In this document: piece by piece, positions 6,605 to 58,729 of the stretch
How positions within the stretch are numbered: the stretch's first letter is position 1
How the letters are laid out: every line of letters starts with the position of its first letter
Assembly: GCA_021414235.1 (NCBI GenBank)
Contig: JAIOOV010000004.1
Location: 409,591 to 473,590 of the forward strand
Length of the DNA stretch: 64,000 nt
Direction: 5' to 3'
From: Candidatus Parcubacteria bacterium
Lineage (GTDB): Bacteria > Patescibacteriota > Minisyncoccia > Phycocordibacterales > JAKFXT01
Translations under genes and position numbers: made by a program
The notes under the pieces: generated by a model
The model's database searches: none
What the model was told of the DNA's origin: nothing
What the model saw: only the letters and a program-made list of their open reading frames with translations

Positions 6605-7177
6605 TTAGCAATTAAACACCTCCTTGCCGCGCTTTACCATTTCCTGGTATTCCGCGACGATCGGGCTCTCCAGACGACGCTCCAGCACCCCGAGAACTTC
6701 CCGATAGAACCACATCTGCTCCTCGATAGGTACGCGGAAGTTCTGCCAGATGGCCTCGCCATGGATATCGAAATCACTGATGGTGGTAGAGAGGTTGTGG
6801 ATCTTGTCCGCCGCAGCGATCATGAGCCCCTCCGCACTCGCCTGCTCCAGGCCCTCCACATACGCACGCTTCCTGTCCTTCCAAGAGATCGGGGAACCAT
6901 CCCTCTCCTTCTCTTCGGTGACCTCAACCACCATCATCGCCACCCGTGAACCGAAATCGGCCTCAAGCGCCTCACGAGTATAGCCGGTGTCCTCGAGCGA
7001 ATCATGCAGGAGTCCGCCGATGACCACATCCTCGTCCTTGGCATGATTAGAGAGAAGCGCCGCCACCGAGAAGAGATGGCTCACATAGGGAATATCCCGC
7101 TTCGCCCGGCGCTTCTGTCCGTCATGGAGAAGGCAGGCGGCCCTGATGGCTTGTTCGATGCGCGGAGTAAGGTACAT
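6605..7177 (-). CDS. HD-domain (p)ppGpp hydrolase-like protein (small alarmone hydrolase / SpoT N-terminal-like)
   Basis: H...HD...LHDSLEDT pattern (LLHDGQ, LLHDSLEDT) as in RelA/SpoT hydrolase HD domains. 190 aa, with no synthetase domain. Confidence 0.65.
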   Translation of the reverse strand: MYLTPRIEQAIRAACLLHDGQKRRAKRDIPYVSHLFSVAALLSNHAKDEDVVIGGLLHDSLEDTGYTREALEADFGSRVAMMVVEVTEEKERDGSPISWKDRKRAYVEGLEQASAEGLMIAAADKIHNLSTTISDFDIHGEAIWQNFRVPIEEQMWFYREVLGVLERRLESPIVAEYQEMVKRGKEVFNC

Positions 7178-7179
7178 GG

Positions 7180-7782
7180 TTAATTTACGTGAAAAGGGAT
7201 ATGAGCGAAATCTTTAAGAAGGGTTTCTTTCAAGGCAGGATTATAAATGGCGGAAGCCGGATGGTACAGTGGAAAGATAGTAATCTCTCCGTACGAAGTC
7301 CTTGCAGGAAGAGCCTGCCCATGGAGCGCGCCGATAGTGTCGAGGCGATCCTCAAGCCCCAGCTTCTGCATGACGTAGACCATCGAGTAGCGCCCGAGAG
7401 TGGCGATCACCTTCGGCTGTATGATCTCGATCTGCCGATCAAGGAACGGTCCGTAGCTCGCGATCTCTTCCGGCAGCGGATCGCGGTTCTGAGGCGGGCG
7501 ATCCTTCACGATATTGGTGATATAGATGTCCTCGCGCGGGATATGCACGGAAGCTAAGAGCTCGTCGAGGATCTTGCCCGCGGCCCCGCAGAAGGGGCGG
7601 CCGGTCTTAGCTTCATTCCTCCCTGGAGCCTCCCCTACAAACATGATCTCTGCATCACAGCTTCCCTCACCGATCACCGGCAGATACTTGTTCTCCGTGC
7701 GATATGCGTAAAGCGGAGAGGAAGTAAGCGCCAGCACCTCTCCCTCTATCTGCCGCATCTTCTCTTTCTTCCCCTCGTTCAT
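7180..7782 (-). CDS. udg: uracil-DNA glycosylase, family 4
   Basis: Has the GEAPG motif (MFVGEAPGRNEAKTGRPFCGAAG) and the C-terminal HPSP-like motif (YHPASAIY), characteristic of family-4 UDG. Confidence 0.85.
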   Translation of the reverse strand: MNEGKKEKMRQIEGEVLALTSSPLYAYRTENKYLPVIGEGSCDAEIMFVGEAPGRNEAKTGRPFCGAAGKILDELLASVHIPREDIYITNIVKDRPPQNRDPLPEEIASYGPFLDRQIEIIQPKVIATLGRYSMVYVMQKLGLEDRLDTIGALHGQALPARTSYGEITIFPLYHPASAIYNPALKETLLKDFAHIPFHVN

Positions 7783-8060
7783 ATCTTGACCCCTTCCGCC
7801 CGAAGCTTCGCTACCTTGCGTTCAATACCTCCATTGTAGCCGCCCAGCTTGCCATCTGAACGGAGTACCCGATGGCATGGCACCTTAGGATCCTGATTGC
7901 GACTCATGACGGTACCCACCGCACGCGAGGCCCCCGGATTCCCCGCCTTCGCCGCTACCTCCTTGTAGGTCATGGTCTTTCCTTTGGGGATATCTTTGAC
8001 CACCGCGCGCACACGCTCAGCAAAGGATTTTATCTTAAACTCCGTGAGTCTTGATTTCAT
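7779..8060 (-). CDS. ogt: methylated-DNA--protein-cysteine methyltransferase, C-terminal (DNA-binding/active-site) domain only
   Basis: 93 aa containing the PCHRV active-site motif and a downstream HTH. There is no N-terminal domain. It overlaps udg by 4 nt (ATGA-type coupling). Confidence 0.8.
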   Translation of the reverse strand: MKSRLTEFKIKSFAERVRAVVKDIPKGKTMTYKEVAAKAGNPGASRAVGTVMSRNQDPKVPCHRVLRSDGKLGGYNGGIERKVAKLRAEGVKI

Positions 8061-8061
8061 A

Positions 8062-8838
8062 TTATTTCCTTACGAGAGCCTGCAGCTTCTTCCCCGCCGC
8101 TTCTCGATATGGACAATACTCGCAGGCATTACCCACCTTGGGTAATTTATCGCTCTCAAGGCAGGCCTTGATCTCGGGCAGGACCTTGTCGATCCACTCC
8201 GTCTCTCCTTCACACGGAATCACCGTTATCTCAAACTCAAGCTGCGCATCGAAAGCCGCCTTGTCCTTGCTCGCATTCGCGTACACGAAATACCCCGTCT
8301 TGGAGACTGGATATCCATTCTTACTCAAAAGCCACTGATATACGCCCATCTGCCGCTGGTACTGGGCTTCCCAGGCGGAATCAGCCAGCGTCTCGATCTT
8401 GCCGTCCTTGGACGTAGCCTTGTAATCGACAACAATGAGTTCACCCTCTGGGTTCTGCCAGACATCGTCCACTGCTCCGGAAATGACGAAACCGGTCTCC
8501 TTGTCGCGATATTCCACTCCCTTGAAATTCTCCCTCCAGACATCCATCTTCGGATCTGCAAAGGGTATGGCATCCACCCCATACGCCTTCATGAGCGGGT
8601 GCGTAGAGCCATTCGCTCGATGTACGTCGAATTCCTTCTTGAGGAGCGCGTCGACGGCAATGTTTAGAGTAAAAGACGGTCCGCGGGGACGCCCGGTGCC
8701 GAGCTTGTTATCTAAATAGAAACAACGCGGGCATTCTATGAAAAGGTCGATCTTGGAGCGGGACAGGCGCCACTTGGGACCACCGTAATTCCAATCCGGA
8801 CTTCGGTTGGGATTGTACATCTTTCGCTCATCGCTCAT
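8062..8838 (-). CDS. PD-(D/E)XK nuclease, Cas4/RecB-like with Fe-S cluster cysteines
   Basis: Has the VVDYKATS (D-x-K) catalytic motif. An N-terminal CPRC plus C-terminal CEYCPY matches the 1+3 Cys pattern of Cas4/AddB-type nucleases. No CRISPR array or cas genes are nearby. Confidence 0.65.
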   Translation of the reverse strand: MSDERKMYNPNRSPDWNYGGPKWRLSRSKIDLFIECPRCFYLDNKLGTGRPRGPSFTLNIAVDALLKKEFDVHRANGSTHPLMKAYGVDAIPFADPKMDVWRENFKGVEYRDKETGFVISGAVDDVWQNPEGELIVVDYKATSKDGKIETLADSAWEAQYQRQMGVYQWLLSKNGYPVSKTGYFVYANASKDKAAFDAQLEFEITVIPCEGETEWIDKVLPEIKACLESDKLPKVGNACEYCPYREAAGKKLQALVRK

Positions 8839-8867
8839 CTGCTCACTATATCACTTTGCTTCGAGAC

Positions 8868-8900
8868 AAAGAAAAAACCCGAGCGCGGTTGGCGCTCGGG
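8868..8900 (-). terminator. rho-independent terminator (downstream of mgtC)
   Basis: Perfect 9-bp stem CCCGAGCGC/GCGCTCGGG with a 5-nt loop. It is followed on the minus strand by TTTTTTTCTTT. Confidence 0.6.
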
Positions 8901-9014: not shown

Positions 9015-9464
9015 TTACTGCGAAGACCTCTTGACCATCTGCTCCACGTACCAGAGAGCCGTGAACACGAAGAGCGTGAGCGCGGTCGCCATAACGGCGA
9101 TGACATAGAGGCGGAAGCCCACCGCGATACCGATGGCGGTAGCAACCCAGATACCAGTCGCTGTGGTTAGCCCCGAGAGCTGCTCATCTTTCATAAAGAT
9201 GACGCCGCCACAGAGGAAACCGATACCCATGACCACGGAAGCCATTACGCGCAGAGGATCTATGCCCGCAGAAGCCGAGAAGGTTTCAAGGACGATGTTG
9301 GCGATGATGATAAGGAGCGCGGAGCCCATAGAGACGAGCGCATAGGTGCGGAGTCCTGCTGCCTTGTGCGCAAGGGTGCGCTCCAGGCCGAGCGACATAC
9401 CGAGAAGCATAGCGAGGGCAAGCTGGAAGAAGATGATGGCATCCACCGGAGTAAGTATGGGCAT
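9015..9464 (-). CDS. mgtC: MgtC/SapB family membrane protein
   Basis: 149 aa with N-terminal FFQLALAMLLGMSLGLERTLAHKAAGLRTYALV, typical of the MgtC family. Multiple TM helices. Confidence 0.75.
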   Translation of the reverse strand: MPILTPVDAIIFFQLALAMLLGMSLGLERTLAHKAAGLRTYALVSMGSALLIIIANIVLETFSASAGIDPLRVMASVVMGIGFLCGGVIFMKDEQLSGLTTATGIWVATAIGIAVGFRLYVIAVMATALTLFVFTALWYVEQMVKRSSQ

Positions 9465-9494
9465 GGATATTATGTTAGACCTATATTGTAGCGT

Positions 9495-10334
9495 TTAAAA
9501 ATGACTCTCGCACACCGAGCGAGCCTCGGTGAGAACCCGCTTGAGCTTCTCCCCGGTTATGCCGAAGCCAGGCATCTCTCCCTCCCTCTCCCCCAGAGTC
9601 TTACAGAGCACAATCCCCGCCTGCATGAGCCGCGTCTTGTCTGCCCCCGTAAGCGAAGTAAGGCAGGTCAGCGGGTGAGCTTGGGCCTCCTCGATGAGAT
9701 CCTGCAGGTTGCCGTAGCGGGGATAGGTCCAGCTCACGAGCTTCAATCCCGAGCAGTTGGCATAGGTCACCGCCGCCTTGGTGAATTTGGTATTGGTGAT
9801 GAGCCAACCCTCGTCGATGAGCCGCTCGCCCCGCTTAACGCGGAACTTGCGGATGTCTTCCACCCGCGCGTTCACATAAAGGGCTACCTTGAGGTCGCTC
9901 TTGAGGCCGAGCTGGTTATGGAACTTGATCTCCCCGATGATGTATTTGTTCGGCGTATGCGCGACAAGATCCACTTCATGCTCGACGCAGGAGCCGGAGA
10001 GCATCTGGCCCGTAGCTACAGTAAAACCACGAGAGCGGAAGATCTCCCCGATGTAATCCTCAAACGGGAACCCAGAGGGGCCGAGGGCGAGTACTGCGCG
10101 CTTAAGAGAGTATCGTGCGGCTACCGGCTTCTCGATAGTGCGCAAGAGCTCGAACGCCCGCTTATATATCTCATGCGTGCCAATACCCGAAGTGAGAGAG
10201 GTGCGCACTCCCTTCAGCACCTCGTTCACTACCTTTGGCTTGGCACCCGCGCGCTCCAGCGACTGGATGAGCTTGGAAGGATCGAAGGGCTCCTGATCCC
10301 CATTAGCCTTAGTGACAAGTATGGTTTTGGGCAT
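9495..10334 (-). CDS. ATP-cone domain fused to restriction-endonuclease-like PD-(D/E)XK (Mrr-like) nuclease domain
   Basis: The N-terminal ILVTKANGDQEPFDPSKLIQSLERAGA matches an ATP-cone. The central part has a D...E-x-K motif (HEVDLVAH...IIGEIKFH) on a restriction-endonuclease-like fold. The C-terminal ~100 aa are unassigned. Confidence 0.6.
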   Translation of the reverse strand: MPKTILVTKANGDQEPFDPSKLIQSLERAGAKPKVVNEVLKGVRTSLTSGIGTHEIYKRAFELLRTIEKPVAARYSLKRAVLALGPSGFPFEDYIGEIFRSRGFTVATGQMLSGSCVEHEVDLVAHTPNKYIIGEIKFHNQLGLKSDLKVALYVNARVEDIRKFRVKRGERLIDEGWLITNTKFTKAAVTYANCSGLKLVSWTYPRYGNLQDLIEEAQAHPLTCLTSLTGADKTRLMQAGIVLCKTLGEREGEMPGFGITGEKLKRVLTEARSVCESHF

Positions 10335-10336
10335 AT

Positions 10337-10789
10337 TCAGTCTATAGGAAGCGCTTCGAGGCTCGAGGTAGAAGCCGCCTCGGTGATGACAAGGGTGGAT
10401 CGCTTGCCATCGAGAAACACTGAGACGCGGGCCTCAGGGCTCGCTTGGAAGGCCACCTTGAAGCGCTTGAGCGTCTGCCTCTGTTCACAGGAATCCCCGT
10501 CGGTAAGAACGGAGAGATTTATGGAAACCTGCTCGGGATATGATTCGCGGACGATCGACTCCGCATCTATGCGGTGACAGGTAGAGGGAACGTCGAGCTC
10601 TCCCACATAGATATGCGCGCCATGACGATACTGATGAAGTACGGGAATCTCGAAAAGCGGTTCGACCGCCTGGCGCGCTGCAGCCGGGAAGAGGAGACGG
10701 AGATCCTTGAAAGGGCCGCGCTCATACCCGAGCCATACGGAGCCGATGAGCATCGCAAGGAGTGAGAGGAGGAGTATCCGAATGATCAT
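10337..10789 (-). CDS. hypothetical membrane-anchored protein
   Basis: ORF with N-terminal TM helix (MIIRILLLSLLAMLIGSVWLG). Preferred ATG at 10789 has a GGAAG RBS. The track ORF extends to 10855 but would overlap the mnmA 3' end. Confidence 0.45.
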   Translation of the reverse strand: MIIRILLLSLLAMLIGSVWLGYERGPFKDLRLLFPAAARQAVEPLFEIPVLHQYRHGAHIYVGELDVPSTCHRIDAESIVRESYPEQVSINLSVLTDGDSCEQRQTLKRFKVAFQASPEARVSVFLDGKRSTLVITEAASTSSLEALPID

Positions 10790-10821: not shown

Positions 10822-11940
10822 CTAAGGAGTGGCGACTACTCCGCCTCCCAGACACTCAGAACCAGCGTAAAAGACCACCGACTGCCCGGGAGAGACGAGG
10901 AGAGGTGTGGAAAAGACGGCTTGCACCTTGCCCTTCTTAACTTCTATGCGGCACGGATGCCGCTCCCCATGGTAGCGGATCTCGGCTTCCACTACTGCGC
11001 CTGGTAACCCCTTGGGATTAACGCTCTGAACCCCTTCGAGAGGAATCCGTACACTACCCTTCATTGCTCCAGGCGTCGTAGAGACAGTGAGCGTATTCGC
11101 CTGAATATCCTTGCCGACCACGTAAAGCGGCTTCTGACCGGTCCCGGAGGCTTCCACGGAGAAACCGTGCCTCTCGCCCAGGGTATAGAGCGCTGCCCCA
11201 TCGTGAGAGCCGATTGTCTTCCCCTTGGTATCGAGCACGGCTCCTCGCTCGGTCTTTAAATGACGTGCAAGGAAGTCTTTCATATCTACCATCCCGAGGA
11301 AGCAGATACCCTGGCTATCCTTCTTTTCTGCTGTGGGCAGCTTGAAGCTCTTGGCCTCGGCGCGTACGGCGCTCTTCTCCATGTACCCTATCGGAAAAAG
11401 GATCTGCGCGAGCTCCGCCTGTCCGAGCGCATAAAGGAAATAGGACTGATCCTTCTTCGGATCTGCCCCGCGATGGAGCTCATATACATTAGTCCGCTGG
11501 TTATATATCCGCTGTGCGTAGTGACCCGTCGCCACCAGATCCGCACCCTGCTCGCGCGCAAAGCGCAGGAACGCGCCGAACTTTATCTTCCGATTACACA
11601 TCACATCGGGATTCGGCGTACGCCCCTTCGCGTATTCCGCGATCATATAATCGGCCACTTCACGCTTGTACTCCTCTTCCAGATCGAGCGTACGGAACGG
11701 GACATTGAGGAGAGCGCAGACTCGCATAGCATCCAATCGATCCTCCTTAGCCGTGCAGTACACGTAAGAAGGCTGCCAAGTCTTGATGAAGACGCCGGTG
11801 ACGTCGTAGCCCTGCTCCTTGAGGAGCGCGAGTGCCACCGAGCTATCCACTCCGCCAGAGAGGCCGACGAATACCTTCTCCTTCCCGTTCTTTTCCTGCT
11901 GCATGCTTCCGACTTTACGTGCGCTATGCTGAATGGTCAA
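10822..11940 (-). CDS. mnmA: tRNA-specific 2-thiouridylase MnmA
   Basis: PP-loop motif VFVGLSGGVDSSV, and full-length similarity pattern to MnmA/TrmU. An alternative start at ~11904 (MQQEKNG) is possible. The ORF start at 11940 overlaps the mltG stop. Confidence 0.9.
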   Translation of the reverse strand: MTIQHSARKVGSMQQEKNGKEKVFVGLSGGVDSSVALALLKEQGYDVTGVFIKTWQPSYVYCTAKEDRLDAMRVCALLNVPFRTLDLEEEYKREVADYMIAEYAKGRTPNPDVMCNRKIKFGAFLRFAREQGADLVATGHYAQRIYNQRTNVYELHRGADPKKDQSYFLYALGQAELAQILFPIGYMEKSAVRAEAKSFKLPTAEKKDSQGICFLGMVDMKDFLARHLKTERGAVLDTKGKTIGSHDGAALYTLGERHGFSVEASGTGQKPLYVVGKDIQANTLTVSTTPGAMKGSVRIPLEGVQSVNPKGLPGAVVEAEIRYHGERHPCRIEVKKGKVQAVFSTPLLVSPGQSVVFYAGSECLGGGVVATP

Positions 11941-12917: not shown

Positions 12918-14195
12918 CTAGCGAGGCAGGTTATCCGGCGCTTCCATCTTCTTGGCCATGGTGCGGGTGATGCCTGGGGTCGCAGCAACGGATCCTGGGA
13001 AGTGCCAGATGGTCGCAAGTTCCTCGGTAGAGAGCACATACGCTTTCTTTTTATAGGGAGGGTGGAACCAGGAACGCGTACGATACGCAGCGAGCTTCTT
13101 CTTACGCAGCTTATTAGCCCTAATCTGCTGGAAATCCTGCCAAGGGAAGTCGTTGAGGTTACTGTCCTCCTTGAAGGCGAAGGAATTCATATTACGGGTA
13201 TAGAACGGCTTCATGATCTGCACGTAGCCGGAGATACGCCCGCCGTTGAAATTCTCCGGCTTGGCCATATATGCCATGCGCATGCCGAAGTCGAAGAGCG
13301 GCTTGGAGAGCTTGCGCTCGATAGCTGCAATGATCTCGCCCTCACCCTTCGTGGGAATACGAGGGAAGGTCGCGCCCTCCGGCTTGAAGGAATCGAGGAG
13401 CTTCTTGATGGTCTCTTTCCCTTCTGTGCCCATATCCGCATCAGACTGGCCGCCCATGTCTCCGAAGGGGAATTTGTCTTTGACGTGACCTTCCGCATGC
13501 ACCTGGATGAGGAATTGCATCCAGACCTGCTCGCCCTTCCCGATCATGGAGATATATTCAAGCACTGTCGTGAGCGGATCTATCTTGAACTCCTCCTTGG
13601 GGTCCTTGTCGAGCTCGTAATCGACGTATGTCTTGATGGGATATGAATTCAACGGGTGCTTATGCTCGTCTTCCTTCTTCATCTTGAAATCACAGATCCA
13701 CACGCTCATCTGGGTAGGGTCGAAGTACGGGAAAGCTTCGGTATAATCCGGCACCTCGGTTATCTCAATACCAGGATACTGGCTGTAAAGGGATGCTTCT
13801 ACGACGTTTTTAAACTGAGCGCGTGTCCAGACATAGAAATGGATGTTGCCTTCGATCGAAGCGATTTCGAGTGAGAACCAAGGACGCACCTTGCCGTTCA
13901 CGTAGCGATCCCACCAAGTGCTCTCTCCGCTGCCGTTATGGAAATGCGTAAGAGCGAGCTCCATGGCTCTCGGCGAACGCAGCACCTCCCTCGGTAGCTT
14001 GATCTCCAACAAAATGTATTTCTGGCTCTGGATGAAATCCCTACGCTTATAGGCGATCCACATACGCCAGAAGAAGAGTCCGAAGACCGGAGGTCCCCAG
14101 AACGGAATGAAGCGCACCACGTAACCGAGACCCTGGACAAAGGTCCCGTCGGAGAACGGCTGAAAGAAGAGGTCGTAAAAAAAATCGAGACCCAT
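12918..14195 (-). CDS. conserved hypothetical protein (425 aa) with N-terminal hydrophobic anchor
   Basis: Long uninterrupted ORF with non-repetitive composition and a hydrophobic N-terminus (FIPFWGPPVFGLFFWRMWIA). No P-loop or other catalytic motif recognised. Conserved-looking C-terminal motif LSTEELATIWHFPG. Confidence 0.65.
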   Translation of the reverse strand: MGLDFFYDLFFQPFSDGTFVQGLGYVVRFIPFWGPPVFGLFFWRMWIAYKRRDFIQSQKYILLEIKLPREVLRSPRAMELALTHFHNGSGESTWWDRYVNGKVRPWFSLEIASIEGNIHFYVWTRAQFKNVVEASLYSQYPGIEITEVPDYTEAFPYFDPTQMSVWICDFKMKKEDEHKHPLNSYPIKTYVDYELDKDPKEEFKIDPLTTVLEYISMIGKGEQVWMQFLIQVHAEGHVKDKFPFGDMGGQSDADMGTEGKETIKKLLDSFKPEGATFPRIPTKGEGEIIAAIERKLSKPLFDFGMRMAYMAKPENFNGGRISGYVQIMKPFYTRNMNSFAFKEDSNLNDFPWQDFQQIRANKLRKKKLAAYRTRSWFHPPYKKKAYVLSTEELATIWHFPGSVAATPGITRTMAKKMEAPDNLPR

Positions 14196-55729: not shown

Positions 55730-58729
55730 TTAAGAGGACGTGTCGTCGCCTTTGAGCTCTTCTGATAACAGACAGTACTCGCAATCTTTTTTGTCACAGC
55801 GATTACCCCAGAAGGAAAGCATAGCGATTTCACTAGCCACACCCTTGATAACAGTCTCCAATTCTGTCACTTCCTCGTCTGTGGGCGCAAAGGATTCCCG
55901 ATGGAACTTACCTTTCTCATCTGGCTCGAGGAAATCTATCTCACCAGCTACCATGCGATATCTCTTGTCTGGCGCTTTAGCTAAGAGAAGCTTGTAAAAA
56001 ACCAGCTGTCGGTAGTAATTGCCGTCTGCATCCTTGGTCTTGCCCTCTAGCTGATTGCGGGTCTTCCACTTACCTGTCTTGTAGTCGGTCACGTTTACCT
56101 TCTCGCCATCAATAACTTCTACCCTGTCGAGAGTACCCTTGAGAGGAAAAGTTCTTTCTCCTTCCTTAAGCGCTATGCTCATCTCAACACCTTTAACCGC
56201 ATATTCAGATAGAATCGGCGGCTTCCAAGAAGTGCGCCATTCATTCCAATACCCCATGAGAGCTTTCTTCCCCTTGATGAGCGCGTCCTTCTGATCCGTG
56301 AGCGATAGTGGTTGTCTCTCCAGAGCGTTTTCAAAAGAAGCGATGAGACCGGGTAAAGAGATCTCTGCGCCCTTGCTTAAAGCAGAGAGCGTATCGCTAA
56401 GTGCCTTGTGCATGGCAGTGCCATAGAGCTGGTGCTTGGTCTCTATCTGGGGCACGCGCACCAAGTTCACGAAAAAGTAGCGCCACGGACAAGCGAGATA
56501 GTTATTAAGCGCAGAGACGGAGAGCCCCTGCTCGAAGAAGCGTTCGCGGAGGTACTCTTTGTCCGCGATAGAGGGGCCTTGTGGAAGAGCAGCGGCGAAG
56601 CTTGATTCGGAAATCGCAGGAAGTAAGACTTCCTCGCGAGTAAGAAGAGAGGGATCAATCTCAGAGAGGAATTGCGATGGCGCGTTGTCCCGACCATCGC
56701 CATTGCGGGCCGCGTAGCTGATGACCGCCTCCTCCTTGGCCCGAGTAAGGGCCACATAGAAGAGCCTACGCTCATCCTCCACTCCACCCTTGCCTACTCC
56801 TACGATGGGCAGAGCACCAAAGTGAGTTCGGCTGCGGCCACCGCCCCAGGAGCGCTCGTCTGCTCCGGTGATATATACCCGCTCGAACTCTAGTCCCTTG
56901 GCGCGATGCGCAGTCATCAGGCGCACCGCTCCTCTATCCTTTGGCGCGCTGTAGCGGATGGGTAGGTTGTAGCGCGAGAGCATATCTAGATGCTCCAGGA
57001 AACCGGCGAGTGTCTGCCCCGGATCTGCCTTGAGCGCTTCGCGCGCTTCTGCGAGGAGCTGATGGAATTTGGCGAGAAGCTCTGCTGAATTGGAGCGAGA
57101 GAGGATGTGCCGGAGGAAACCAGACTCGCGAAAAAGCTCCTCGAGCGTGTGGAGCGAATCGTTGTTCTTGGAGGTCACTGCAAAGCGAAGCATGTTGCGG
57201 CTGAAGTCCAGCCACGGAGCCGCCTCTTGTATGCCTGCCTCGGTGAGAAGTCGCGCACTGGAGCAGATCTCCAGAAGAGGAAGGTGATGCTTGCGCGCGA
57301 AGGCCAGAAGCCTAAAACCTTCCAGTGTCGGGAGCTTCCAGAAATCTAGGAAGATGAGTTCACCGATGTTGGCATCCGTAGGCTCTACGGCAGAGCGTGC
57401 TAGAAGAAGGAATTTGCGAATCTCCCTATTAGCCAGCACATTGCGCTCCGACTCTATCTGATATCGCACACCCTTCTTGGCGAGAGCTTCGCCGAGAGGC
57501 ATAGCGTCATCGTTGTGACGATACAGGATCGCTATCTCATTCGGCGTAACGCCCGCAGCTATAGCTTCAGACACAGAGGCAGCTACCCCATCTGCTTCAG
57601 ACGGCTCGTCCGGATACTCGCGAAGAATCAGCTTGGCCTTCTCCTTCTTCTGCGCTACTAGCGGGATGCGCAAATCACTCCCCTCCGCACTCGCAGATTT
57701 CATGAGGCTGTGTGCGCTGTCGAGAATCGTCTGGCCAGAGCGGTAGTTGTCAGTGAGGGCTACTACCACAGCCTTCGGATACTTTTGTTTGAAATATAAG
57801 AAGTTCTCAAGAGAGGCTCCCTGGAAGCGAAAGATGGCCTGCTTCTCGTCGCCGACAATGAAGAGGTTGGGGCTCTCATGAAAATCAGAGAGGAGCTCTA
57901 GGATACGATTCTGCGCGCCGTTGGCATCCTGGTGCTCGTCCGCGAGGAGATACTGGTATTCCTCCTGGAGGCTACGCAGGAAATCCACTTTGGCCTCGAG
58001 CGCGCGGATAAGCTCCAGCAGCATGTCCTCGTAGTCGTAGCGCCGTTCTTTAGCGAGCGCTTTCTCGTAAGCGTCATAGAGAACAAGCAGTTCTTTGTTC
58101 TTGGCTATCTGCTTGGCCAGATCACGAAATTCGCCCTTCATCTCTCCCTTGTAGCGGCCTTTCTCGTGGATCTTGTCTGGCGTATCGATGTACTCCTGCT
58201 CCTGCTTCTTGAGGAGCACGGCGAAGCGCTCGGCAGTCACGTTCTCCCGCTTCATGGATTGGATGGCGGAGAGCGCGGGCTTTACGTAGTAGAGCGGGTC
58301 GCCCCAAGGTCGCAGCAATTCCAGGCTCTCTTCCTTCTCCAAGATCTTCTCCATAAGACGAATCTGTTCCGTCTCTGTAAGAGCAGTGCCGCCGATGATG
58401 CGTGGGAATTCTTCTGGATAGCGGCGGATGATCTCGTTGGCAAAGCCGTGGAAGGTATGGATATGTACGCGATACCCCTCCGCTCCCATGATGGAGACGA
58501 GACGTGCACGCATGGCGGAGACGCCGGACTCGGTGAAGGTGAGCGCCAGGATGCTATCTGGAGACGCATCCGTCTTTTTTAAAATGTTGGCAATACGGAG
58601 CGTAAGTATCTGCGTCTTACCGGTACCAGGACCCGCAATGACCATCACCGGCCCCTCCACCGTATCCACCGCCTCTCTCTGGGCAGGGTTCAGCTTCTTG
58701 TAGAGCGCATTAAAGGAATCGTTGGTCAC
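55730..58729 (-). CDS. UvrD/PcrA-type helicase fused to C-terminal PD-(D/E)XK (RecB/AddA-like) nuclease
   Basis: Helicase motif I AGPGTGKTQIL and UvrD-like motifs throughout. The C-terminus has the VTDYKTGK nuclease motif and CDKKDCEYC cysteines. 999 aa, GTG start. Confidence 0.85.
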   Translation of the reverse strand: MTNDSFNALYKKLNPAQREAVDTVEGPVMVIAGPGTGKTQILTLRIANILKKTDASPDSILALTFTESGVSAMRARLVSIMGAEGYRVHIHTFHGFANEIIRRYPEEFPRIIGGTALTETEQIRLMEKILEKEESLELLRPWGDPLYYVKPALSAIQSMKRENVTAERFAVLLKKQEQEYIDTPDKIHEKGRYKGEMKGEFRDLAKQIAKNKELLVLYDAYEKALAKERRYDYEDMLLELIRALEAKVDFLRSLQEEYQYLLADEHQDANGAQNRILELLSDFHESPNLFIVGDEKQAIFRFQGASLENFLYFKQKYPKAVVVALTDNYRSGQTILDSAHSLMKSASAEGSDLRIPLVAQKKEKAKLILREYPDEPSEADGVAASVSEAIAAGVTPNEIAILYRHNDDAMPLGEALAKKGVRYQIESERNVLANREIRKFLLLARSAVEPTDANIGELIFLDFWKLPTLEGFRLLAFARKHHLPLLEICSSARLLTEAGIQEAAPWLDFSRNMLRFAVTSKNNDSLHTLEELFRESGFLRHILSRSNSAELLAKFHQLLAEAREALKADPGQTLAGFLEHLDMLSRYNLPIRYSAPKDRGAVRLMTAHRAKGLEFERVYITGADERSWGGGRSRTHFGALPIVGVGKGGVEDERRLFYVALTRAKEEAVISYAARNGDGRDNAPSQFLSEIDPSLLTREEVLLPAISESSFAAALPQGPSIADKEYLRERFFEQGLSVSALNNYLACPWRYFFVNLVRVPQIETKHQLYGTAMHKALSDTLSALSKGAEISLPGLIASFENALERQPLSLTDQKDALIKGKKALMGYWNEWRTSWKPPILSEYAVKGVEMSIALKEGERTFPLKGTLDRVEVIDGEKVNVTDYKTGKWKTRNQLEGKTKDADGNYYRQLVFYKLLLAKAPDKRYRMVAGEIDFLEPDEKGKFHRESFAPTDEEVTELETVIKGVASEIAMLSFWGNRCDKKDCEYCLLSEELKGDDTSS

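Follow-up and report, generated by a model that had tools for sequence, protein, structure and literature searches.

An ATP-cone joined to an AF1548-like PD-(D/E)xK nuclease in Patescibacteria: a candidate nucleotide-gated housekeeping endonuclease

The DNA considered here, referred to as the window, is a stretch of 64,000 nucleotides from a Candidatus Parcubacteria bacterium (assembly GCA_021414235.1, contig JAIOOV010000004.1). The gene of interest occupies positions 9495..10334 of the minus strand and, with its stop codon included, is a genuine and complete open reading frame for a product of 279 amino acids, the N-terminus of which agrees with that of 40 full-length homologues in an alignment. 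The gene and its neighbours are the following:

6605..8838, minus strand: group of DNA-repair and nucleotide genes downstream of the nuclease gene, which it accompanies in Patescibacteria (Pfam and locus comparison), containing the next four genes
6605..7177, minus strand: SpoT-like HD_4 hydrolase
7180..7782, minus strand: family-4 UDG
7779..8060, minus strand: MGMT-like protein
8062..8838, minus strand: Cas4-like PDDEXK_1 protein
9015..9464, minus strand: MgtC-family membrane protein (Pfam MgtC, E 3.6e-31), 30 nt downstream of the nuclease gene
9495..10334, minus strand: ATP-cone / PD-(D/E)xK nuclease / AF1548-like C-terminal domain protein, 279 aa plus stop
10337..10789, minus strand: small ORF with an N-terminal hydrophobic anchor, lineage-specific (3 of 85 loci)
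10822..11940, minus strand: mnmA (tRNA 2-thiouridylase), upstream in conserved synteny (73 of 85 loci)

The small ORF ends 2 nt ahead of the nuclease start codon and belongs to no Pfam, NCBIfam or PADLOC family. On the other side, a terminator-like hairpin (8900..8878) stands just past the MgtC-family gene, which is probably the last of the transcription unit. A 358-aa ORF antisense to the nuclease gene (9501..10577, plus strand) was treated as a shadow ORF, without support.

From its sequence, the 279-aa protein is predicted to have a conserved three-domain build, consisting of an ATP-cone sensor, an intact nuclease and a small DNA-binding-like tail. The domains and the active-site codons are placed as follows:

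10098..10319, minus strand: ATP-cone domain, residues 6-79 (Pfam PF03477)
9735..10073, minus strand: Mrr_cat / PD-(D/E)xK nuclease core, residues 88-200 (Pfam PF04471; 1Y88; Foldseek)
10059..10061, minus strand: E92 codon, acidic active-site residue of the first helix
9969..9971, minus strand: D122 codon, catalytic Asp corresponding to D38 of AF1548
9924..9932, minus strand: E135-I136-K137 codons, catalytic ExK corresponding to E51/K53 of AF1548
9507..9728, minus strand: AF1548-like C-terminal helical domain, residues 203-276, a putative nucleic-acid-binding or dimerisation module (tail profile against 1Y88)

The fusion of an ATP-cone with a restriction-endonuclease fold had been proposed in a preliminary description of this DNA, made from the letters alone, and it is borne out both by Pfam, where the two domains exceed their curated cutoffs (PF03477, residues 6-79, E 1.4e-8, 35.6 bits against 25.8; PF04471, residues 88-200, E 2.7e-6, 27.9 bits against 21), and by an AlphaFold2 model (pLDDT 83.7) in which both folds are present. 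No NCBIfam model matches the protein. Many family members carry the NCBI label "restriction endonuclease", and in some JGI records the homologues are named "Holliday junction resolvase"; they are not named as transcription regulators. A literature search on the ATP-cone together with restriction endonuclease, nuclease, Mrr or Patescibacteria returned nothing on such a fusion.

In the model, the cone consists of a beta-hairpin (residues 6-16) followed by four helices, which is the topology expected of an ATP-cone, and Foldseek superposes it on the cone of Escherichia coli NrdR with an rmsd of 2.2-2.3 A over 81 residues. The alignment by hhalign (probability 95.8%) pairs K9 with K53 of NrdR, E15 with E59, K21 with K65, T53 with S105 and Y75 with Y131, the last of which is the ATP/dATP "gatekeeper" of NrdR. 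Conservation was assessed in 389 homologues that are 35-87% identical to the 279-aa protein. Among them K9, G12, F17, K21, S25, T53 and Y75 are conserved at 96-99%, so that the nucleotide-contacting set, made up of the lysine of V-x-K (K9, 99%), the lysine of helix 1 (K21, 97%) and the tyrosine at the tip of helix 4 (Y75, 98%), is kept. Judged by these residues, the cone is NrdR-like in that its lysines for phosphate binding and its tyrosine for telling ATP from dATP are retained, and nucleotide binding is predicted. Its ligand specificity may nevertheless differ from that of ribonucleotide reductase (RNR), because the canonical arginine that follows the lysine in the K-R of RNR cones is missing (position 10 is alanine in 65% of the sequences) and E15 is retained in only 59%. 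The family cone profile aligns with residues 1-72 of NrdA and with NrdD; when it was run against the PDB, it picked up NrdR and NrdA weakly (E 0.006-0.03), the relation to NrdR coming out more clearly with hhalign, and the designed helical-repeat proteins that flooded this search were dismissed as compositional. The nuclease gene alone was matched when all six frames of the window were scanned with the HMM for a second ATP-cone, and Pfam detected no ribonucleotide reductase among the ten largest other proteins of the window.

ATP-cones act as nucleotide-driven oligomerisation switches (bioRxiv 10.1101/2025.03.28.645925). The closest cone is that of NrdR, a Zn-ribbon and ATP-cone protein that represses RNR genes upon sensing ATP/dATP, and the principle expected to be shared is nucleotide-dependent oligomerisation governing access to DNA. 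In contrast to NrdR, the protein described here has no Zn-ribbon (there is no CxxC...CxxC pattern, and the cone begins at residue 6), its cone stands at the N-terminus, and the domain under its control is an intact nuclease where NrdR has a DNA-binding finger. With the overall activity site of class I and III RNRs the cone has the Pfam family in common, and dATP feedback on deoxynucleotide supply would be the common logic; the differences are the lost arginine of K-R-D-G and the regulated activity, which is reductive in RNR and predicted to be hydrolytic here.

The nuclease core bears the full E...D...(D/E)xK motif on an alpha-beta-beta-beta-alpha-beta fold, with E92 on helix 90-101, D122 on strand 118-126, and E135 and K137 on strand 131-137. 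The motif quoted in the preliminary description proved exact: VDLVAH contains D122 and GEIKFH contains E135-x-K137, as checked in the DNA (atc at 9969-9971, read as GAT, Asp; GAG at 9930-9932, Glu; AAG at 9924-9926, Lys). The nuclease is probably active, since its catalytic residues are 99-100% conserved in the 389 homologues (E92, D122 and K137 at 100%, E135 at 99%); E120 is also invariant (100%). Foldseek places the core nearest to 1y88 (E 2.3e-13), followed by MspJI, Can2, Card1, Cdn1 and XisH, with the resolvase ST1444 also among the results. Two further Pfam families were matched below threshold, namely the resolvase family Hjc (PF01870; 13 bits against 21.1, E 0.1) and the inactive-REase family NA-iREase1 (E 0.0017).

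The C-terminal part had been described as an unassigned tail of about 100 residues. It is in fact about 80 residues long (residues ~201-279) and can be assigned to the C-terminal domain of AF1548 from Archaeoglobus fulgidus: phmmer with the whole protein matches residues 95-274 to the crystal structure 1Y88 (E 5.4e-26), the family tail profile matches residues 124-196 of that structure (E 1.5e-13), and the modelled tail domain superposes on it with a TMq of 0.77 and an rmsd of 2.5 A. On the single sequence, PF22357 is weak and below threshold (E 0.027, 15 bits against 23.9). Any HhH/SAM-like resemblance of the modelled tail is weak, because the likeness found by Foldseek to the RadA/Rad51 N-terminal domain, BAF and SAM domains is non-significant. 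The protein thus has the two parts that define an AF1548-like protein, the nuclease core and the C-terminal helical domain, with the catalytic D/E-x-K aligned (Foldseek E 2.3e-13, TM 0.78 normalised to 1Y88, 30% identity), whereas AF1548 itself has 199 aa and no ATP-cone. The latter is a structural-genomics protein which lends to the comparison a fold and not a function; the literature yielded just the prediction that it is restriction-endonuclease-like, with D38, E51 and K53 as catalytic residues (PMC1821046, GOS paper).

The family is uniform and widespread. Clustering at 50% identity gave at least 436 clusters (E <= 1e-30), nearly all of about 280 aa and of the same architecture, and at least 595 matching stretches were confirmed in a collection with one genome per species. 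The clusters come from Patescibacteria, Bacteroidota, Chlamydiota and Dependentiae. No phage record contains a match, and among 72,556 plasmids only 2 do. On this distribution of sequences, the family is vertically inherited and not mobile.

In Patescibacteria, the gene recurs within the order LeuRS-sigma-DUF8128-YceG-MnmA-[ATP-cone nuclease]-...-AlaRS, and in 73 of the 85 related loci compared its immediate upstream neighbour, read in the same direction, is mnmA. Of the two co-directional upstream genes with which the preliminary description placed the nuclease in an operon, the small membrane ORF is not a conserved partner, with a homologue in only 3 of the 85 loci, and mnmA reflects conserved synteny with no evident functional link and is probably not a functional partner. 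The MgtC-family gene is found in 36 loci, and UDG, the Cas4-like nuclease and the MGMT-like protein recur downstream. In 9 loci the gene directly downstream encodes a YfbR-like (5'-deoxynucleotidase-like) HD protein, which overlaps the nuclease gene by 4 nt in locus L004 and is separated from it by 1 nt in L005. Guilt by association with these neighbours is weak, because the flanks are mostly unrelated housekeeping genes such as mnmA, yceG and alaS.

In Bacteroidota and Chlamydiota, the nuclease gene heads an operon in which it is followed by genes for a beta-CASP/MBL hydrolase, a thymidine/AMP-phosphorylase-family enzyme and a PRPP synthase. This arrangement, of which no description was found in the literature searched, was seen in Roseivirga/Owenweeksia, Cyclobacterium, Cyclobacteriaceae, Fluviicola, Pontibacter and Criblamydia. 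The gene ends overlap or abut in locus L087 and on the Criblamydia plasmid, where the operon is flanked by glycogen phosphorylase/phosphoketolase on one side and acetate kinase on the other. About half of the non-patescibacterial loci are without it (L062, L068, L071, L077, L089 and L090), and a tblastn search of the window for genes of beta-CASP, phosphorylase and PRPP-synthase type gave none. The RNA-specificity domain RMMBL is part of the beta-CASP neighbour and fits poorly with a purely DNA-directed role. In Bradyrhizobium, part of the operon, its MBL-PRS-TP trio (bll3115-3117), is induced under microoxia (PMC6515984). In a Dependentiae genome, the nuclease gene is near ruvB and yebC, with uvrA in the vicinity.

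Taken with the cone, the strictly conserved catalytic set leaves allosteric control of the nuclease by adenine nucleotides, as suggested in the preliminary description, as the best reading of the sequence. The function that we tentatively prefer, at a confidence just short of an even chance, is that of an AF1548-family endonuclease with a housekeeping role, inherited vertically, gated by adenine nucleotides and serving nucleic-acid turnover and nucleotide salvage. By analogy with RNR and NrdR, the oligomeric state would shift when a nucleotide binds the cone, and this shift would permit or block a cleavage-competent assembly on the nucleic acid gripped by the C-terminal domain. The nuclease would be expected to be inactive at high (d)ATP and to become active once the pool is depleted; to our knowledge, high dATP turns off deoxynucleotide supply in every ATP-cone system characterised so far. 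The endonuclease would start turnover with the first cuts, most likely in DNA and possibly in RNA. In Patescibacteria the products may then go to the neighbouring YfbR-like 5'-deoxynucleotidase and UDG, and in Bacteroidota and Chlamydiota to the beta-CASP hydrolase, the thymidine/AMP-phosphorylase-family enzyme and the PRPP synthase.

The repair genes near the nuclease allow a different function, that of a DNA repair or recombination nuclease, for example a structure- or damage-specific enzyme acting with UDG, or else a resolvase of the Holliday-junction type; the cone would tie its activity to replication or dNTP status. The family-4 UDG, MGMT-like and Cas4-like genes of Patescibacteria, the ruvB, yebC and uvrA genes of the Dependentiae genome, the weak Hjc and ST1444 matches, the resolvase name used in JGI records and the weak likeness of the tail to the Rad51/RadA N-terminal domain all point this way. 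The Hjc score is far under its threshold, however, the salvage operon of Bacteroidota and Chlamydiota would be left unexplained, and no repair enzyme with an ATP-cone was found in the literature, nor do we know of one reported; a repair function therefore seems rather unlikely. Catalytic silence appears very improbable. In that case the protein would be an NrdR-like transcription factor, in which the cone controls sequence-specific DNA binding through a degenerate nuclease fold together with a helical tail and which regulates nucleotide-metabolism genes. The NrdR cone is indeed the closest, NA-iREase1 gives its weak match, and the gene often stands at the head of a nucleotide-metabolism operon, but both a Zn-ribbon and an HTH are absent, and a regulator of this kind was rejected in view of the 99-100% conservation of all four catalytic residues down to 35% identity, which is unexpected for an inactivated fold.

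A defence role, which the preliminary description had also considered, is not supported. Type IV restriction enzymes need no cognate methyltransferase, and a solitary Mrr-like nuclease, of type IV or sensing the nucleotide pool, could be switched on when infection disturbs ATP/dATP. The protein shares the Mrr_cat domain, above the Pfam threshold, with Mrr-type enzymes, and many members bear the restriction-endonuclease name; the nearest folds include MspJI and the ligand-activated defence nucleases Can2, Card1 and Cdn1 of CRISPR and CBASS systems, in which a small-nucleotide sensor is likewise combined with a PD-(D/E)xK nuclease. The likeness to the latter is one of architecture in principle, with no significant sequence similarity, and their CARF domain reads cyclic oligoadenylate in a defence context, whereas the ATP-cone is predicted to read bulk ATP/dATP in a housekeeping and metabolic one. 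Unlike Mrr-type enzymes, the protein has no Mrr_N reader of modified DNA and no defence island, and it is vertically inherited. Moreover, it has no PADLOC family at E <= 0.01, its syntenic place amid housekeeping genes is fixed in 73 of the 85 loci, length and architecture are uniform across the clusters, and phages and plasmids are almost or entirely free of it. The survey of the loci for methyltransferases and defence islands found none adjoining; the neighbours are housekeeping, repair and salvage genes, never defence genes. Anti-phage activity is thus quite unlikely, and the database name "restriction endonuclease" is probably misleading. The conserved neighbours speak for nucleotide-controlled breakdown of nucleic acid and salvage rather than for phage defence.

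A broader and less probable proposal is that the gating of a nuclease is the third recruitment of the ATP-cone to the control of nucleotide supply, those in RNR and NrdR being the earlier two. In the ultra-small Patescibacteria, the protein could be an entry point from nucleic acid to nucleotides under dATP/ATP feedback, while in Bacteroidota and Chlamydiota it could sense ATP and set off a four-gene operon through which nucleic acid serves as a reserve of pentose and energy when energy is limiting. As far as we know, ATP-cones are understood mechanistically solely as regulators of RNR and of its repressor NrdR; a nuclease under such control, if real, would mean that the same sensor governs the breakdown side of nucleotide supply too. 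Many Patescibacteria live attached to host cells, and their nucleotide economy is a central question. They are reported to be without many biosynthetic pathways and to depend on host cells (PMC11665869), and the family occupies a fixed housekeeping array across a large part of this group. Furthermore, cultured carriers make the family tractable, namely Cyclobacterium marinum, Algoriphagus ratkowskyi, Pontibacter actiniarum, Roseivirga seohaensis and Criblamydia sequanensis.

The gene encodes a three-domain protein:

9495..10334, minus strand: nuclease open reading frame, 279 aa

Pfam places an ATP-cone at residues 6-79 (E 1.4e-8) and a Mrr_cat restriction-endonuclease domain at residues 88-200 (E 2.7e-6), both above the curated thresholds, which confirms the fusion proposed in the preliminary description; the motif quoted there is also exact, VDLVAH carrying D122 and GEIKFH carrying E135-x-K137. 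The tail, previously considered unassigned, can be assigned, since the profile of the remaining ~80 residues matches residues 124-196 of the Archaeoglobus fulgidus AF1548 crystal structure, 1Y88 (E 1.5e-13). In a sequence search, residues 95-274 matched 1Y88 at E 5.4e-26, and this region is what the protein has in common with AF1548, itself of unknown function. AF1548 was predicted in the GOS paper to be restriction-endonuclease-like, with catalytic D38/E51/K53 (PMC1821046), residues that align with D122/E135/K137 of the window protein. By sequence and fold, the protein is an ATP-cone, Mrr_cat and AF1548-like family member. Two other identities were discarded: NrdR, because the protein has no Zn-ribbon, and Hjc, because the score is below threshold.

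An AlphaFold2 model built from 40 homologues has a mean pLDDT of 83.7 and a pTM of 0.69, the linker residues 71-74 being the sole very low-confidence stretch. Its best PDB match by Foldseek is 1y88 (E 2.3e-13, TM 0.78 on target), followed by the PD-(D/E)xK nucleases MspJI, Can2, Card1, Cdn1, XisH and the R2 endonuclease domain, while the N-terminus matches the E. coli NrdR ATP-cone (rmsd 2.2-2.3 Å over 81 residues). A separate model of the C-terminal domain (pLDDT 77.6) resembles 1y88 (TMq 0.77) and, non-significantly, the N-terminal domains of Rad51/RadA, BAF and SAM domains; it would fit a helix-hairpin-helix-like module that binds nucleic acid, without proving it.

The family is large. A word-indexed search retrieved 4440 relatives, and an exhaustive search of 50%-identity representatives gave 1162 clusters at E <= 0.001, of which 436 reach E <= 1e-30; almost all are 275-290 aa long and built of these three domains, the cone being absent from a few; in a collection with one genome per species, at least 595 matching stretches were confirmed as relatives. 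The main hosts are Patescibacteria (Paceibacteria/Parcubacteria, Kaiser-, Zambryski-, Taylor-, Adler- and Yonathbacteria), joined by Bacteroidota (Cyclobacterium marinum, Algoriphagus ratkowskyi, Roseivirga seohaensis, Pontibacter actiniarum, Fluviicola, Saprospiraceae), Halalkalibaculum, Dependentiae and Chlamydiota (Criblamydia sequanensis). Members are named 'restriction endonuclease', 'ATP cone domain-containing protein', 'ATPase' or 'Holliday junction resolvase' in databases, and our literature searches found no paper discussing them; the architecture is already in databases but unstudied.

Conservation was measured on 389 full-length members with 35-87% identity to the window protein. 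In the active site, E92, E120, D122, K137, R157, D160 and N181 are 100% conserved and E135 99%; in the ATP-cone, K9 (99%), G12 (99%), F17 (96%), K21 (97%), S25 (98%), T53 (96%) and Y75 (98%) stand out. At profile level the family aligns with E. coli NrdR (probability 95.8%), which pairs K9 with K53, E15 with E59, K21 with K65, T53 with S105 and Y75 with Y131. The cone departs from the RNR type at two places: in RNR-type cones an Arg follows the K9 position, whereas here it is missing and 65% of sequences have Ala, and E15 is kept in only 59% of the family. Judged from these alignments, selection maintains catalysis by the nuclease, and the ligand of the cone is very probably an adenine nucleotide of some kind. 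Four cysteines are also conserved (C116 and C194 99%, C244 87%, C224 71%), and AF1548 aligns a Cys with C116, C194 and C244; they could form a metal site or a disulfide at the nuclease/tail interface.

The closest relatives of the window place it in a patescibacterial genome. In Patescibacteria, the same-strand order LeuRS, sigma70-like, DUF8128, YceG, MnmA, nuclease, variable genes and AlaRS recurs, even where the orthologue is only 44-61% identical, and in 73 of 85 loci MnmA lies immediately upstream of the nuclease. The variable genes encode MgtC, a Cas4-like PDDEXK_1 protein, a 93-aa MGMT-like protein, a family-4 UDG, a SpoT-like HD or a YfbR-like HD protein. The latter, a weak NCBIfam match to 5'-deoxynucleotidase, lies directly downstream of the nuclease in 9 loci, with a 4-nt overlap in one (L004) and a 1-nt gap in another (L005). 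The position is that of a vertically inherited housekeeping gene and not of a defence island. In the window, a small anchored ORF precedes the nuclease, its stop 2 nt before the start codon; its supposed role as operon partner does not generalize, as it occurs in only 3 other loci. MgtC follows 30 nt downstream. The remaining window features are:

6605..8838, minus strand: DNA-care block downstream of the nuclease (Cas4-like PDDEXK_1, MGMT-like, family-4 UDG, SpoT-like HD)
8900..8878: strong terminator-like hairpin after MgtC
12918..14195, minus strand: DUF8128 protein, 425 aa
15383..18244, minus strand: leucyl-tRNA synthetase, 953 aa
45215..51183, minus strand: UvrA and UvrB
55730..58729, minus strand: AddA-like UvrD helicase fused to a PDDEXK_1 nuclease, 999 aa

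With the AddA-like fusion, UvrA and UvrB, this small genome keeps several other nuclease-based repair functions.

In Bacteroidota and Chlamydiota a tight operon recurs with the nuclease first, followed by a beta-CASP/MBL hydrolase with an RMMBL domain, an archaeal-type thymidine/AMP-phosphorylase-family protein of ~500 aa and a ribose-phosphate diphosphokinase (PRPP synthase). Frequent companions are a universal stress protein ahead of it and, behind it, a DUF3108-like protein, an amino-acid permease and PPK2. The module is complete at loci L046, L086, L088, L091/L092, L093 (Pontibacter plasmid NZ_CP021236.1) and L094 (Criblamydia plasmid NZ_LK031773.1) and partial at L087 and L040, gene ends abutting or overlapping in L087 and L094. 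The module's neighbours on the Criblamydia plasmid are acetate kinase at one end and phosphoketolase with glycogen phosphorylase at the opposite end. Neighbours are unrelated at the non-patescibacterial loci L062, L068, L071, L077, L089 and L090. In Bradyrhizobium diazoefficiens, the hydrolase, PRPP synthase and phosphorylase trio occurs without the nuclease (bll3115-3117) and is induced by microoxia at the protein and RNA level (PMC6515984). No description of the four-gene module was found in the literature searched, and both this operon and the fixed place in the patescibacterial array appear to be undescribed so far.

The protein has a conserved sensor, nuclease and tail and is probably an active, nucleotide-regulated nuclease. 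By analogy with the ATP-cones of RNR and NrdR, nucleotide binding to the cone would re-sort oligomers. Since PD-(D/E)xK enzymes generally cut as dimers, such re-sorting would switch cleavage on or off, and the same analogy suggests that high dATP or ATP turns the nuclease off. In its working, the protein would come closest to a cross between NrdR, whose nucleotide-driven cone governs access to DNA, and sensor-nuclease fusions of the kind of Can2 and Card1. Because the neighbours point to turnover in two independent contexts (in Patescibacteria, UDG and a 5'-deoxynucleotidase-like protein; in other phyla, beta-CASP, phosphorylase and PRPP synthase), it may make the first cuts, in DNA or RNA, in nucleic-acid turnover feeding nucleotide salvage or pentose catabolism, a salvage or turnover role that we put forward tentatively, at slightly under even chances.

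The defence role suggested earlier fared poorly. The protein is not a known defence system, and no PADLOC model matches it; tblastn found nothing among 50,697 phage records and the gene on only 2 of 72,556 plasmids, both with the metabolic operon; and no methyltransferase or recognised defence gene adjoins it in any locus examined. Type IV enzymes can act singly, without a methyltransferase, which leaves a defence role some probability, but with its synteny fixed, its architecture uniform and its neighbours metabolic, the nuclease is unlikely to have one.

Several side observations were also made. At L068 (Halalkalibaculum sp. DA3122), two genes downstream of the orthologue and past a glutaredoxin-like ORF, a 509-aa protein (9190-10719) fuses an ATP-cone to a 'putative glucoamylase' domain (PF10091); this cone is 35-52% identical to nuclease-family cones, indicating that shuffling has joined the same cone subtype to another catalytic domain as well. 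On the Criblamydia plasmid, too, the operon has a 'glucoamylase family protein' beside it. The L046 protein (8001-8861, chromosome OZ243107.1, labelled 'Owenweeksia sp.') is 100% identical to an NCBI Roseivirga seohaensis protein (cluster P0271), which suggests a MAG taxonomic mislabel or a very recent transfer. The 358-aa ORF antisense to the nuclease gene (9501..10577, plus strand; window GC content 55.6%) has nothing to support it and was taken for a shadow ORF, the coding region being GC-rich. In the DNA-care block, the Cas4-like nuclease is stand-alone, no CRISPR array being seen in the stretches examined, the MGMT-like protein consists of the DNA_binding_1 domain only and keeps the PCHRV active-site motif, and the SpoT-like HD hydrolase has 190 aa. 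DUF8128 always lies between the sigma70_r4/HARE-HTH protein and YceG in the conserved array. The LeuRS carries an inserted NUDIX hydrolase domain (residues 391-507, Pfam E 3.5e-12), which is absent from the L004 and L005 orthologues and present in that of L001.
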